DNA of 64,000 nucleotides from a virus (lineage: Duplodnaviria > Heunggongvirae > Uroviricota > Caudoviricetes). The stretch is from IMG/VR virus record IMGVR_UViG_3300045988_154477. One strand, 5' to 3'. The notes beneath the pieces are model-generated. The model saw only the letters and a program-made list of their open reading frames with translations, was not told the origin of the DNA and made no database searches. Every line of letters starts with the position of its first letter. The first letter of the stretch is position 1. Of the stretch, positions 14,851 through 62,973 are shown piece after piece. The position numbers and the translations under genes are program-made.

Positions 14851-14872
14851 ATTCTACCGCTAGTCATTTGTT
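14851..14872 (-). promoter_or_regulatory. candidate late promoter (AACAAATGA-N7-TAGAAT) for the 14821..10070 operon
   Basis: minus-strand AACAAATGActagcggTAGAAT; same core upstream of prt, lyz and pacA. Confidence 0.45.
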
Positions 14873-14893
14873 GATTATTTAACTCAATAAAAG

Positions 14894-14910
14894 AAAATTA
14901 TTAGTGCAAT
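14894..14910 (-). promoter_or_regulatory. C1 operator-like site (ATTGCACTAATAATTTT)
   Basis: 14/17 match to consensus. Confidence 0.45.
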
Positions 14911-15000
14911 TCTGCTTGTGGAATGTATCATTCTGCCTTTAAGTAGGTTCTTTATGAGGAAACAAAATTGGCAGAGCGTGTTGATGATGCAGAGCTGAGC

Positions 15001-15213
15001 ATGAATCAGTTAGAAGCTCTCAAAGACATGGCCATCGATAACATCAGAAAGCAGGCACAGGTCGTGAGTCAGGTATTTACAGGTAAGTGTCGTTACTGCA
15101 ATGAACCGATTGAATCAGGCATTTATTGTGACGCTGAATGTGCGCAATGGCACAGGGAAGAGCAGGCCGCAAAACAGCGTAAATATGGCATGCGACCGGC
15201 AGGATTTGACTGA
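15001..15213 (+). CDS. small zinc-ribbon protein
   Basis: 70 aa from ATG 15001 (track start TTG 14968); CRYCNEPIESGIYCDAEC Cys4 motif. Confidence 0.4.
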   Translation: MNQLEALKDMAIDNIRKQAQVVSQVFTGKCRYCNEPIESGIYCDAECAQWHREEQAAKQRKYGMRPAGFD

Positions 15214-15215
15214 TT

Positions 15216-15794
15216 ATGTTGCGCTTTACTGAGGAAGAGTTTCAGGCTTTTAGTGAGCGTCGAAATAAGGGGCGGTCCAGGCCAAAAACCAAAAAGGATC
15301 CATTCTTATCGCTTGCGCCGGTAAAAGAAGTTTCTCCACATGCGAAGGCACTTGCAGCACTGGCAAAGAACCCAGACCTGCGCGACGGAAATTGCGAGCA
15401 CTTCGAGCAGATTTTCATTTTTGATTACTTCGAACGCAAGCACCCTGACATCTATGAGCTGTTGCATGCAACGCCTAACGGAGGGAAACGTTCAAAAGCA
15501 ACCGCCGGGAAAATGAAGGCTGAAGGGCAGAAAAAAGGTTATCCGGACATGAGTCTCGATAAAGCATGCGGTATTTATCACGGCATGCGAATTGAGCTTA
15601 AAGAACCAAATGGTAAAGCCCCGACGAAAGAGCAGATCGCCTGGATGCGCAGGCTTAGAGAGGAAGGTTACTACGTCGTTCTTGCGTATGGTGCAGAACA
15701 AGCGATAACCGCCATCCTGGAATACATGAGCCTTAAAAAGGGTGAGGCTATTGAGCATGTATTGAACGGTGACAAGTGGTTGTACACTACGTGA
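15216..15794 (+). CDS. VRR-NUC domain nuclease
   Basis: 192 aa; ATPNGGKRS...GYPDMSL...GMRIELKEPNGK pattern typical of VRR-NUC. Confidence 0.6.
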   Translation: MLRFTEEEFQAFSERRNKGRSRPKTKKDPFLSLAPVKEVSPHAKALAALAKNPDLRDGNCEHFEQIFIFDYFERKHPDIYELLHATPNGGKRSKATAGKMKAEGQKKGYPDMSLDKACGIYHGMRIELKEPNGKAPTKEQIAWMRRLREEGYYVVLAYGAEQAITAILEYMSLKKGEAIEHVLNGDKWLYTT

Positions 15795-61548: not shown

Positions 61549-61549
61549 G

Positions 61550-62161
61550 TTAATTTCCTGCTTTCAGTTGCTTAAGACGACGTTTGAGTTCGCCATTCCG
61601 TGCCTTTTCGTTATTGAGTCGGCCCGTCTCCTTATCCAGCTTCGCCCGCAAATCAGTGATCTGCTGTTGATTGAAAGACACCGAATTCTGCGCGGACTTA
61701 TAAGCGGCAACCACCTGAGCATTCCGCTGTTTTGCTTCTTGCAGGCGCTGAAAGTTGGATTTAACTGCCGGTTTCTTGTCTACCGGATTGGCAACACGCT
61801 TCGCTTTGGCGATCAGTGATTTCTGGAATTTTGCGGAGTTTTTGCGGGCCGCCTGTCCCATGACGGTACCAAGCGTCTTGATATCCGGCGACTGAGCGTT
61901 AGGAATAGCTTTTCCATTCAGTTTCACAGACGATATATCGCCAGTATCGTTTACCTGTATGGCAAGAATTTGTCCGTCGTTAAGAACCAGCTTTGCGGTT
62001 TTAACTTTAACGCCATCTTTCGTTGTTGCGCGGTTGCTGGAGTCAACCTCAATTACCGTAACACCGGTTTTATTGATCGCCGCGATAAGGGATTTCAGCC
62101 CCTTTTCATTAACCTGGTCAAAATCGACCGTTGCATACTTATTTTTCGTCATCTGACACAT
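61550..62161 (-). CDS. hdf: Hdf-like protein (head/defence function)
   Basis: 203 aa, basic; first large gene of dar operon. Confidence 0.65.
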   Translation of the reverse strand: MCQMTKNKYATVDFDQVNEKGLKSLIAAINKTGVTVIEVDSSNRATTKDGVKVKTAKLVLNDGQILAIQVNDTGDISSVKLNGKAIPNAQSPDIKTLGTVMGQAARKNSAKFQKSLIAKAKRVANPVDKKPAVKSNFQRLQEAKQRNAQVVAAYKSAQNSVSFNQQQITDLRAKLDKETGRLNNEKARNGELKRRLKQLKAGN

Positions 62162-62582
62162 CCTGTGCGAGATTTATTACGTAACTTCTGCGGATTTGCT
62201 GAGTAACAGGGAAAATCCGATACAACGGGTTAATGAACGAGTCGCCATGCGTAACCATGACGTTGAAATGCCACAGTCGCTCTCCTTTACCCATATATTC
62301 AGTGGGTATGTACAACCATTCACTGTTTTCGCCCTGTTCAGCCGACGTCAGACAACGTTGTTCACCTTCAATCACTGTCGTCGGCTTCTGAACATCGCGG
62401 ATCCAATATCTGACCGTTGCGCCGCGCAAAAACGGGAATTTAGACCGGTACTTGAACGGCACCCGGATGAAACCCGGTTTAATTTCCACATCACCAAGTT
62501 CTAAATGCGTGATGTCCTTGCGTTTTAGCAAATAGCGATCGGCTAAGGCTAACGCAAGAACGCATACACCCCAGCCAATCAT
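62139..62582 (-). CDS. hypothetical protein
   Basis: 147 aa; hydrophobic N-terminus; P1 lydE position. Confidence 0.45.
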   Translation of the reverse strand: MIGWGVCVLALALADRYLLKRKDITHLELGDVEIKPGFIRVPFKYRSKFPFLRGATVRYWIRDVQKPTTVIEGEQRCLTSAEQGENSEWLYIPTEYMGKGERLWHFNVMVTHGDSFINPLYRIFPVTQQIRRSYVINLAQDVSDDEK

Positions 62583-62908
62583 TTCCCGCCTCCCTTTTTC
62601 ACCAAACTTGTAAGAACATTCAGAATGCTATCGATATTCACTCGTTTCATCCCTGAAATCACCTCATGACCGTTATTGCTGGCTATCGTTACCATTAAGT
62701 ACGTAATTGATAACTCCCAGCCCTCGTGTTGCCCCAATAGGTACGCCACCGCGCCAGCTGTCACTGCAACAAAGATCTCCGTAACCAATCCCAACAAATT
62801 GCCAGACTGGCGACCGTCTCGGACATCCATCAGGAACGTGCCTATCCCACCAATTACTGAAAGCAGGAGCGCAATAGCAACTGGAGCTAATTCCTGTGTG
62901 TCAAGCAC
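62579..62908 (-). CDS. holin-like membrane protein
   Basis: 109 aa; three predicted TM segments; P1 lydD position. Confidence 0.5.
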   Translation of the reverse strand: MLDTQELAPVAIALLLSVIGGIGTFLMDVRDGRQSGNLLGLVTEIFVAVTAGAVAYLLGQHEGWELSITYLMVTIASNNGHEVISGMKRVNIDSILNVLTSLVKKGGGK

Positions 62909-62950
62909 AAGTTCCCTCCTACGTTGTCAGGAGGTAATGGTATGCAAAGT

Positions 62951-62973
62951 AACTTCTCAACCGGTCATTTGTT
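62951..62973 (-). promoter_or_regulatory. weaker late-promoter-like motif (AACAAATGA) upstream of the lyd/dar operon
   Basis: core present but -10-like hexamer AGAAGT is poor. Confidence 0.3.

Follow-up and report, generated by a model that had tools for sequence, protein, structure and literature searches.

The 64,000-nucleotide stretch of viral DNA analysed here (the window) carries several copies of a short element upstream of late operons, and the question is whether these copies are promoters and which regulator serves them. A sequence-only reading had described the element as ACA(A/T)GTGA-N7-TAnnnT, listed five sites and proposed activator-dependent late promoters served by Lpa. The proposal is supported: the five sites are orthologues of the annotated late promoters LP26, LPpac, LPpro, LPlyz, and LPdar of phage P1, and we put the probability that the window sites are Lpa-dependent late promoters of a P1-like phage at about 95%. 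This assessment builds on sequence elements, their orthology to P1 promoters, their retention in other lineages, intact lpa and Olpa, and late timing in P1, all obtained in the present analysis, and nothing in this evidence contradicts it. The window derives from a P1-like phage (Punavirus) and is collinear with P1 from 63,833 to 94,800 and onward from 1 to 32,275; the P1 promoters LPs, LPsit, and LP23 fall outside it. The motif is the long-established late-promoter signal of P1, already known rather than new, and the sequence-only reading thus rediscovered a known system.

The recurring element and its sites

The pattern ACAWGTGA-N7-TANNNT matched exactly at four places in the window, where 0.09 matches were expected; none of 100 shuffles reached four. 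With one mismatch allowed, there were seven matches, and 1.85 were expected. The recurrence is therefore real, but the element needed redefinition: what is conserved is a 9-bp near-palindromic box, AAGTGACTT, located 4 bp upstream of the -10, and not ACAWGTGA at a distance of seven nucleotides. In late promoters, (A/G)AC usually stands directly before the AAGTGACTT consensus. All five listed sites exist in the orientation given to them, with a correction of one nucleotide for the site before prt, which begins at 49968 and not at 49967. The genome-wide motif search suggested along with them, run on the window, brought up LPmat, an exact copy within gene 7, and a marginal copy within lydA at 62625-62645 (minus strand). 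Besides LPmat, the original list also lacked LPpmgL, which shares the LP26 box and came to light only when the P1 annotation was mapped onto the window. The window counterparts of annotated P1 late promoters are as follows:

14851..14869, minus strand: LP26, with box AAATGACTA at 14861-14869, a 4-bp spacer, and the -10 TAGAAT at 14851-14856
14861..14879, plus strand: LPpmgL, the LP26 box on the other strand (TAGTCATTT), spacer GTTG, -10 ATTATT
33409..33427, plus strand: LPpac, box ATGTGACTT, spacer TCGT, -10 TACCCT
40412..40430, plus strand: LPmat, perfect palindromic box AAGTGACTT, spacer CAGT, -10 CAGAAT
49970..49988, plus strand: LPpro, box AAGTGACTA, spacer GTGT, -10 TAAATT
53690..53708, minus strand: LPlyz, box AAGTGATTT, spacer GCAT, -10 TATCCT
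62937..62955, minus strand: LPdar, perfect palindromic box AAGTTACTT, spacer TGCA, -10 TACCAT

LPpmgL apart, the spacer between box and -10 measured 4 bp in 6/6 sites, and two to four of the four arm pairs of each box were symmetric. As matches to the original pattern, these sites span 14851-14871 (minus strand, ACAAATGACTAGCGGTAGAAT, one mismatch), 33407-33427 (plus), 40410-40430 (plus), 49968-49988 (plus, ACAAGTGACTAGTGTTAAATT), and 53690-53710 (minus); the copy before the lyd/dar operon, described as weaker and placed at 62951, corresponds to GAGAAGTTACTTTGCATACCAT at 62937-62958 (minus). At the window late promoters, the first gene of the operon begins 19-87 nt downstream on the same strand. 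These genes are gene 26 (ATG at 14821, the start already proposed for this operon, 29 nt past the -10), pacA (GTG at 33464, 36 nt past LPpac), mat (ATG at 40450), prt (TTG at 50032, 43 nt past LPpro), lyz (ATG at 53602, 87 nt past LPlyz), and lydA (GTG at 62908, 28 nt past LPdar). The operon behind LP26 comprises genes 26-25-7-24-6-5.

The five sites had been said to lack a -35 hexamer, and in none of them did a hexamer 15-19 bp from the -10 agree with TTGACA at more than 3/6 positions. LPpac does have a TTGACA, yet only 12 bp from its -10. At LPmat, as in P1, a sigma-70 promoter overlaps the late promoter, with TTGACA 19 bp upstream of the -10.

Conservation of the sites and timing of the downstream genes

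The 22-nt cores of LP26, LPpac, LPmat, LPpro, LPlyz, and LPdar are the same as in P1, and the 59-nt stretches around the window sites differ from P1 at zero to five bases (none around LPdar). In the P1 record AF234172, the orthologues are annotated as "late promoter LPxx" with a "-22 region" and a -10, at 78485-78503 (LP26), 90475-90493 (LPpac), 2666-2696 (LPmat/Pmat), 17251-17269 (LPpro), 20969-20987 (LPlyz), and 31212-31230 (LPdar). The full P1 set, served by Lpa (gp10) and host SspA, consists of LPmat, LPpro, LPlyz, LPdar, LPs, LPsit, LP23, LP26, LPpmgL, LPhot, and LPpac. Window and P1 share the 9-bp box, the 4-bp spacer, the -10, the downstream operons, the lpa gene, and the Olpa operator. 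They differ in that the window phage is without LPhot and hot, the P1 sequence of that region being replaced, and in one base of the LPpmgL -10 (AATATT in P1, where the promoter is annotated at 78495-78513). A search of the LPhot region of the window for a box with the 9-bp LPhot spacing found none.

For comparison among relatives, we used a weight matrix built from the P1 late-promoter sites; its matches in the window are circular, since the matrix was trained on orthologues of the window sites, while the relatives and the RNA-seq data are independent. In Cronobacter phage JK004 (Lpa 67% identical), the homologues of 23, R, 26, pacA, prt, lyz, pmgC, and mat were each preceded by a matrix match. 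A plasmid of S. arizonae (Lpa 73% identical) gave the JK004 set without the expected LP26 position, plus lydA. Identity between window and JK004 was 68%-91% over the 22-mers vs 46%-68% in the flanks: 19/22 vs 56% for LPpac, 17/22 vs 47% for LPmat, and 20/22 for LPpro, of which the S. arizonae plasmid has the JK004 variant. The LPlyz core is kept in both relatives. The footprint of LP26 is retained in JK004 and in loci L106 and L109 with unalignable flanks, forming a conserved island within the intergenic DNA. Across lineages, the box is conserved most, more than the interior of the -10. As to sampling, the viral-contig loci retrieved first were all at least 99% identical and uninformative, and queries with JK004 and S. 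arizonae proteins gave four intermediate loci.

Lateness was taken from published P1vir RNA-seq, and therefore refers to the orthologous genes of P1vir rather than to the window phage itself. The median log2 rise between 10 and 30 min was 6.72 for genes of late-promoter operons vs 4.27 for the others (Mann-Whitney p = 3.5e-12). By operon, the values were 5.7-7.6 for LP26, 7.0 for pacA and 6.7 for pacB, 6.6 for mat, 6.5 for prt and 6.3 for pro, 5.3-8.8 for lyz, lydD, and lydE, and 5.2-7.6 for the genes from lydA to hxr. The genes upfC-upfA, darB, and sim are late as well without an annotated late promoter, so that late timing is not confined to genes with the motif.

LPpmgL and LPhot, both annotated in P1 and atypical in geometry, showed no late kinetics (pmgL and pmgM, lateness 4.0), and some annotated P1 late promoters need not be functional. 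In the window, LPpmgL had a weight-matrix score of -10.8, and inspection of the JK004 sequence revealed no -10-like hexamer after the box in the LPpmgL direction. LPpmgL is probably a weak, minor divergent partner of LP26.

Lpa and alternative explanations of the box

The gene of the putative activator had been placed behind a C1 operator, and both features are present in the window:

32838..32854, plus strand: Olpa, C1 operator ATTGCTCTAATGTATTG, which precedes lpa and overlaps its sigma-70 promoter Plpa
32925..33377, plus strand: lpa, late promoter activator gene (150 aa), its product identical to P1 Lpa at 149/150 positions

The Lpa protein matches the Pfam family PF25716 (BPP1_LPA) at 2.3e-57. 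Of the 17 positions in the C1 operator consensus, Olpa agrees at 14, and P1 has an identical Olpa/Plpa sequence at 89904-89945. A box-like site is also present upstream of Olpa, at 32809-32820.

In the scheme that these features suggest, the lifting of the C1 repressor would allow transcription of lpa from the sigma-70 promoter behind Olpa. Lpa would then bind the box, located at about -22 according to the P1 annotation and followed by the 4-bp spacer and the TAnnnT -10, with no usable -35. Together with SspA, the host co-activator associated with RNA polymerase, it would lead the sigma-70 holoenzyme to start late transcription. The operons switched on would be those for packaging (pacAB), head (prt-pro, mat), tail and baseplate (26-25-7-24-6-5), and lysis and Dar functions (lyz, lydAB-darA). 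Binding of Lpa to the box, the need for SspA, and the start points, a few nucleotides past the -10, are taken from the literature, through secondary sources and the GenBank annotation for P1. Lpa has been described as a sequence-specific DNA binder acting via host SspA (PMC1891329), P1 as having 11 late promoters in which Lpa recognises a 9-bp inverted repeat (PMC10695390), and the late genes, lyz included, as dependent on Lpa, with SspA required (PMC8198154, PMC8201110). A search of solved structures with Lpa found no relative from which the remodelling of the sigma-70 holoenzyme by Lpa and SspA, at a box near -22, could be read.

The copies could be regarded as functionless, with a short AT-rich pattern recurring by chance or through base composition, a reading that we consider hardly credible. 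It is true that the 9-bp core is not rare by itself, AAGTNACTT being present twice in the window vs 0.75 expected, and that variants with one mismatch also appear at sites without function, 62625 in lydA among them. However, the full-length pattern far exceeds expectation in its exact copies, the copies stand correctly oriented upstream of late operons, and orthologous positions are conserved among phages with diverged flanks; this combination of enrichment, placement, and cross-lineage conservation effectively refutes chance. Ordinary sigma-70 promoters, for example of the extended -10 type, active without an activator and with a box that is incidental or serves another purpose, are also very improbable. 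They would fit the TG at -15/-14 in LPpro and in the gene 7 site, the true sigma-70 promoter with its perfect TTGACA overlapping LPmat, and the P1 annotation, which predicts sigma-70 promoters at several late operons too. Conversely, a -35 and a TG extension are both missing from most sites, and it is the box, and not the -10 interior, that relatives preserve best. Moreover, the downstream genes are near silent at 10 min and strong at 30 min, unlike early genes driven by sigma-70, and published genetics indicate that the late genes need both Lpa and SspA.

A near-palindrome would fit any dimeric regulator, the assignment of the box to Lpa comes from the literature, and the search of solved structures brought up none for Lpa; the box might accordingly belong to C1 or to another phage or host regulator. 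We judge this extremely unlikely. The C1 operator consensus, ATTGCTCTAATAAATTT, is unrelated to the box and maps elsewhere: a C1-repressed early promoter requires this 17-bp operator over its -35/-10, and 0 of the 14 operator-like sites in the window overlap a late-promoter core. Operators also lie near LP26/LPpmgL and LPlyz, at a distance of about 25-45 bp, and belong to neighbouring early promoters. In addition, the 9-bp inverted repeat has been assigned to Lpa (PMC1891329, PMC10695390), and the distant P1 relative D6, with an Lpa-like protein 31% identical, has another box before its late operons, which co-variation of box and activator would predict.

Unannotated candidates and related systems

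Two further sites of the window are candidate late promoters conserved across lineages, both still unproven:

13146..13167, minus strand: candidate late promoter within gene 7, AACAAGTGACTGGTGATAACCT, 46 nt into the ORF
130..151, minus strand: candidate late promoter before ppfA, AACAAAGGACTTCATTGATAAT, intergenic, 19 nt before the ppfA ATG at 110

The gene 7 site contains the exact pattern copy (13146-13166, minus strand), and its weight-matrix score of 22.0 exceeded that of every shuffle (maximum 18.4-18.8). It is unchanged in P1 at 76780-76801, and the arrangement box-N4-TAnnnT is kept in JK004, L106, S. arizonae/L107, L108, and L109, with differing encoded amino acids. The site lies in coding sequence, and constraint at the protein level may also account for its conservation. 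The gp25 loci of Pantoea, Serratia, Rosenbergiella, Xenorhabdus, Vibrio, Shewanella, and Pseudoalteromonas were left out of this comparison as too diverged, because the gp7 N-terminus was unalignable and the region upstream of gene 26 was organised differently. In RNA-seq, the rise from gene 25 to gene 7 was +1 log2 in the wild type and 0 in a dksA host, i.e., no consistent step-up. If true, the site would boost genes 24-6-5.

The ppfA site scored 9.2 in the window, within the chance range of the weight matrix. At the same position, JK004 (GACAAATGACCTGGCGGAAAAT) scored 14.2 and S. arizonae (GACATATGACCTGTCAGAAAAT) 12.8, near or below the best shuffles (14.9 and 21.4, respectively), so that this candidate rests on the shared position. 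The genes ppfA, mlp, and upfA are late (lateness 5.7-6.4) without an annotated late promoter, and a true promoter here would explain the kinetics of ppfA-mlp-upfA. For both candidates, relatives with 67%-73% identical Lpa show box-N4-(-10) at the corresponding position. It is possible, if doubtful, that the set of Lpa-dependent late promoters in P1-type phages is larger than the 11 annotated, with the gene 7 and ppfA sites among them, and that LPpmgL and LPhot do not act as late promoters.

Two other sites were rejected. The one within lydA (62625-62646, minus strand, 42 nt upstream of lydB) was considered a chance match, because its score of 16.9 was within the shuffle range and its box was kept in neither JK004 nor S. 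arizonae. The one at 29448-29469 (plus strand) had a score of 10.9, in the chance range, and no plausible gene downstream.

As a discovery these results weigh little, P1 late promoters and Lpa being already present in the reference GenBank record and in recent reviews; their practical value is in annotation. The form (A/G)AC-AAGTGACTT-N4-TAnnnT describes the motif better and could be used for marking the starts of late operons in P1-like phage-plasmids. Such phage-plasmids are now being sequenced in large numbers. The two conserved unannotated candidates, the two annotated promoters without late kinetics, and the different D6 box are testable refinements of the P1 transcription map.

Middle promoters of phage T4 are sigma-70 promoters in which the -10 is normal and the MotA box replaces the -35, with AsiA as co-activator. 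T4 and P1 are thus alike in having an activator box in place of the -35 and in needing a second protein associated with sigma-70 or RNA polymerase. However, the T4 box is centred near -30 and the P1 box lies near -22, and T4 encodes its own co-activator, AsiA, where P1 relies on SspA of the host. Neither the proteins nor the boxes are related, and the window element stands outside the T4 MotA family.

In the Francisella MglA-SspA-PigR system, an SspA-family protein bound to RNA polymerase contacts a DNA-bound activator, and P1 Lpa/SspA has been cited as its precedent (PMC1891329). It differs in being a bacterial virulence regulon with another DNA element and activator, unrelated in sequence to Lpa and the box.

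D6 shares the gene set and the lpa-pacA-pacB arrangement. The P1-type matrix gave only one strong match on D6, whose late operons are also preceded by a recurring element and then a TAnnnT -10; this element is AAATCACA rather than AAGTGACTT, and it lies 6 bp from the -10 rather than 4 bp.

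Late-promoter sites in the window

The pattern ACAWGTGA-N7-TANNNT has four exact matches in the window against 0.09 expected, and seven against 1.85 expected when one mismatch is allowed. All five sites named by the sequence-only reading were found, each on the strand of its downstream gene:

49968-49988, + strand: prt site (downstream start TTG at 50032)
53690-53710, - strand: lyz site (downstream start ATG at 53602)
14851-14871, - strand: gene 26 operon site with one mismatch, ACAAATGA (downstream start ATG at 14821)
33407-33427, + strand: pacA site (downstream start GTG at 33464)
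62937-62958, - strand: weak lyd/dar copy (downstream start GTG of lydA at 62908)

The stated lack of a -35 hexamer also holds for all five: none has a usable one, the best match to TTGACA at 15-19 bp spacing being at most 3/6. LPpac does contain TTGACA, yet just 12 bp from its -10.

The P1 record (GenBank AF234172) carries 11 annotated late promoters (LPmat, LPpro, LPlyz, LPdar, LPs, LPsit, LP23, LP26, LPpmgL, LPhot, and LPpac), in each of which a 9-bp “-22 region” is followed by a 4-bp spacer and then the -10. The prt, lyz, gene 26, pacA, and lyd/dar sites are LPpro, LPlyz, LP26, LPpac, and LPdar, with cores identical to P1, which supports their assignment to Lpa, the P1 late promoter activator. 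The element first described is the same one, with a definition offset from the true box, the near-palindrome AAGT-N-ACTT: ACA(A/T)GTGA comprises two flanking bases followed by the box's left two-thirds, and the conserved CTT and the 4-bp spacer are hidden in N7. The list of sites was also incomplete, as two were overlooked:

40412-40430, + strand: LPmat, whose box is perfect and whose -10 is CAGAAT; a sigma-70 promoter overlaps it
14861-14879, + strand: LPpmgL, the LP26 box read on the opposite strand; its -10 is AATATT in P1 and ATTATT in this phage

LPhot and the hot gene are missing from the window because the hot-bearing region is replaced in this phage (28878-29809 in place of P1 upfO-hot, by BLAST), and LPs, LPsit, and LP23 lie beyond the window limits. 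The motif system is already known: the reference GenBank record annotates it down to the single base, and current papers give summaries of it. Its detection from the sequence is a correct rediscovery. The placement of lpa behind a C1 (P1 repressor) operator was likewise right:

32838-32854: Olpa, the lpa operator, identical to P1 Olpa; the Plpa promoter is identical as well
32925-33377: lpa, whose product is 149/150 identical to P1 Lpa and matches Pfam PF25716

Conservation and timing of the late operons

Since the match between the window and P1 reflects orthology and is no independent proof, diverged relatives were examined. Two of them, Cronobacter phage JK004 (67% Lpa identity) and the S. 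enterica arizonae plasmid CP053320 (73%), were scanned with a weight matrix derived from nine P1 sites. Matches in JK004 lie upstream of the 23, R, 26, pacA, prt, lyz, pmgC, and mat homologues, and of the nine that score at least 11, eight stand at the head of a late operon, where chance would give about one. The S. arizonae matches precede the same operons, with lydA in addition; the exception is LP26, for which the closest match stands some 140 nt upstream of the expected place. The 22-mers of the window and JK004 agree at 15-20/22 positions, compared with 46-68% identity in the gapped flanks, and in further intermediate loci LP26 is an island amid otherwise unalignable intergenic DNA.

Timing was taken from Table S1 of PMC8201110, which lists log2 fold changes at 10 and 30 min for all P1vir genes; lateness was defined as the 30-min minus the 10-min value. 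Median lateness was 6.72 for the 40 genes of annotated late-promoter operons against 4.27 for the 65 other genes (Mann-Whitney p = 3.5e-12 with the wild-type and 1e-13 with the dksA host). Every motif-bearing operon of the window is late in these data:

26-25-7-24-6-5: lateness 5.7-7.6
pacAB: 6.7-7.0
mat: 6.6
prt-pro: 6.3-6.5
lyz-lydD-lydE: 5.3-8.8
lydA to hxr: 5.2-7.6

At 10 min, lpa is already raised (6.6) and pacA, directly downstream of LPpac, is not (3.6), as expected if LPpac requires the lpa product. The genes assigned to the two atypical promoters, LPpmgL and LPhot (P1 86521-86544), are not late: pmgL-pmgM have 4.0 and hot 3.4, compared with about 6.7 for the other late-promoter operons.

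Probable mode of activation of the late promoters

Lpa binds DNA in a sequence-specific manner and is thought to activate by touching the host RNA polymerase-associated protein SspA directly; SspA forms the bridge to RNA polymerase and has no late-promoter DNA binding of its own (PMC1891329). The late genes, lyz for example, need both Lpa and SspA (PMC8198154, PMC8201110); on the polymerase, SspA touches region 4 of sigma-70 and the zinc-binding domain of beta' (PMC7515715). Anatomy, conservation, and timing were observed here; for this phage we infer from that literature that Lpa binds the box, that SspA is required, and where transcription starts. The most likely order is loss of C1 repression, lpa expression, and activation by Lpa and SspA: once C1 is inactivated, Plpa would drive lpa, Lpa would bind the box standing in place of the -35 and contact SspA on the sigma-70 holoenzyme, and the polymerase would open the DNA at the TAnnnT -10.

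Chance recurrence of the motif is excluded by its enrichment, placement, and conservation. Sigma-70 promoters firing without an activator are an unlikely explanation: a -35 and a TG extension are both lacking at most sites, the conserved part is the box and not the -10 interior, and the downstream genes are almost silent at 10 min. It is also improbable that the box serves a binding protein other than Lpa. The C1 operator is unrelated in sequence and maps elsewhere, and phage D6 (MF356679), whose Lpa-like protein is 31% identical, differs from P1 in lacking the P1 box at its late operons. D6 carries its own element there, AAATCACA-N7-TAnnnT, with 12 matches against 1.6 expected, 11/12 of them on the late-gene strand (for example 25221-25241, 38115-38135, 45491-45511, 54124-54144, and 67393-67413 of D6, all on the - strand). 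The difference suggests co-evolution of box and activator.

Further candidate sites and window layout

Two additional candidate promoters were found:

13146-13167, - strand: exact late-promoter-like site in gene 7, AACAAGTGACTGGTGATAACCT, 46 nt inside the ORF
130-151, - strand: site 19 nt before the ppfA start

The gene 7 site is identical in P1, where it is not annotated, and its matrix score (22.0) exceeds that of every shuffled sequence. Box-N4-TAnnnT is kept at the orthologous position in five diverged lineages (JK004, L106, S. arizonae/L107, L108, and L109, the L numbers being intermediate loci), despite changed amino acids and poorly conserved surrounding protein sequence, and the box variants AAATGACC and ATGTGACC in relatives mimic those of genuine late promoters. 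Being coding sequence, it may be under protein constraint, and the P1vir RNA-seq gave no consistent step-up at the site; it may act as an internal promoter for genes 24-6-5. The ppfA site scores weakly in the window and P1 (9.2); its positional counterparts in JK004 (14.2) and S. arizonae (12.8) score higher, though not clearly above the best shuffles of those genomes, so that the case rests on the shared position. The ppfA-mlp-upfA genes, as well as upfB and upfC, are late in P1vir without an annotated late promoter. It is conceivable that LPpmgL and LPhot are not really late and that P1-type phages have one or two more conserved late promoters, which would modestly refine the P1 transcription map. 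A match in lydA (62625-62646, - strand, 42 nt upstream of the lydB start) was rejected as chance, with a score in the chance range and a box not kept in relatives.

Immediately upstream of Olpa, at 32809-32835 (+ strand), lies a box-like sequence, ACAAGTCATTCG (reverse complement GAATGACTTGT), 9 nt ahead of TAGATA, an LPhot-like spacing. It could be an Lpa autoregulation site; it is kept in JK004 and S. arizonae, a conservation that is ambiguous because the site falls within the 3' coding end of pdcB. Some 70 nt upstream of LPpro, the 5' end of darB, which is on the opposite strand, contains a C1-operator-like sequence, ATTGCCCTAATGTATTT (49885-49901, + strand), that agrees with the consensus at 14/17 positions and has no P1 annotation.

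The 5-kb prt-lyz stretch is 98-99% identical to Punavirus/P1 genomes, and whole-window BLAST against AF234172 showed collinearity with P1 63,833→94,800→1→32,275, with IS1 and IS5 not present in the window. Relative to P1, 21548-27592 is extra DNA (about 6 kb) within the pmgT/pmgU region; part of it is common to P7 and SJ46-type punaviruses, and stretches are 90-98% identical to lambdoid/Stx phages (Ea22/ead-like genes). By BLAST, P1 res/mod is replaced by 41148-42470. The site of this EcoP1 restriction system holds a single 378-aa protein (41296-42432, + strand) with a RelA/SpoT nucleotidyltransferase domain (Pfam PF04607, 3e-12) and a match to the PADLOC candidate defence family PDC-S33 (7e-86), which looks like a defence-gene swap at the same position.
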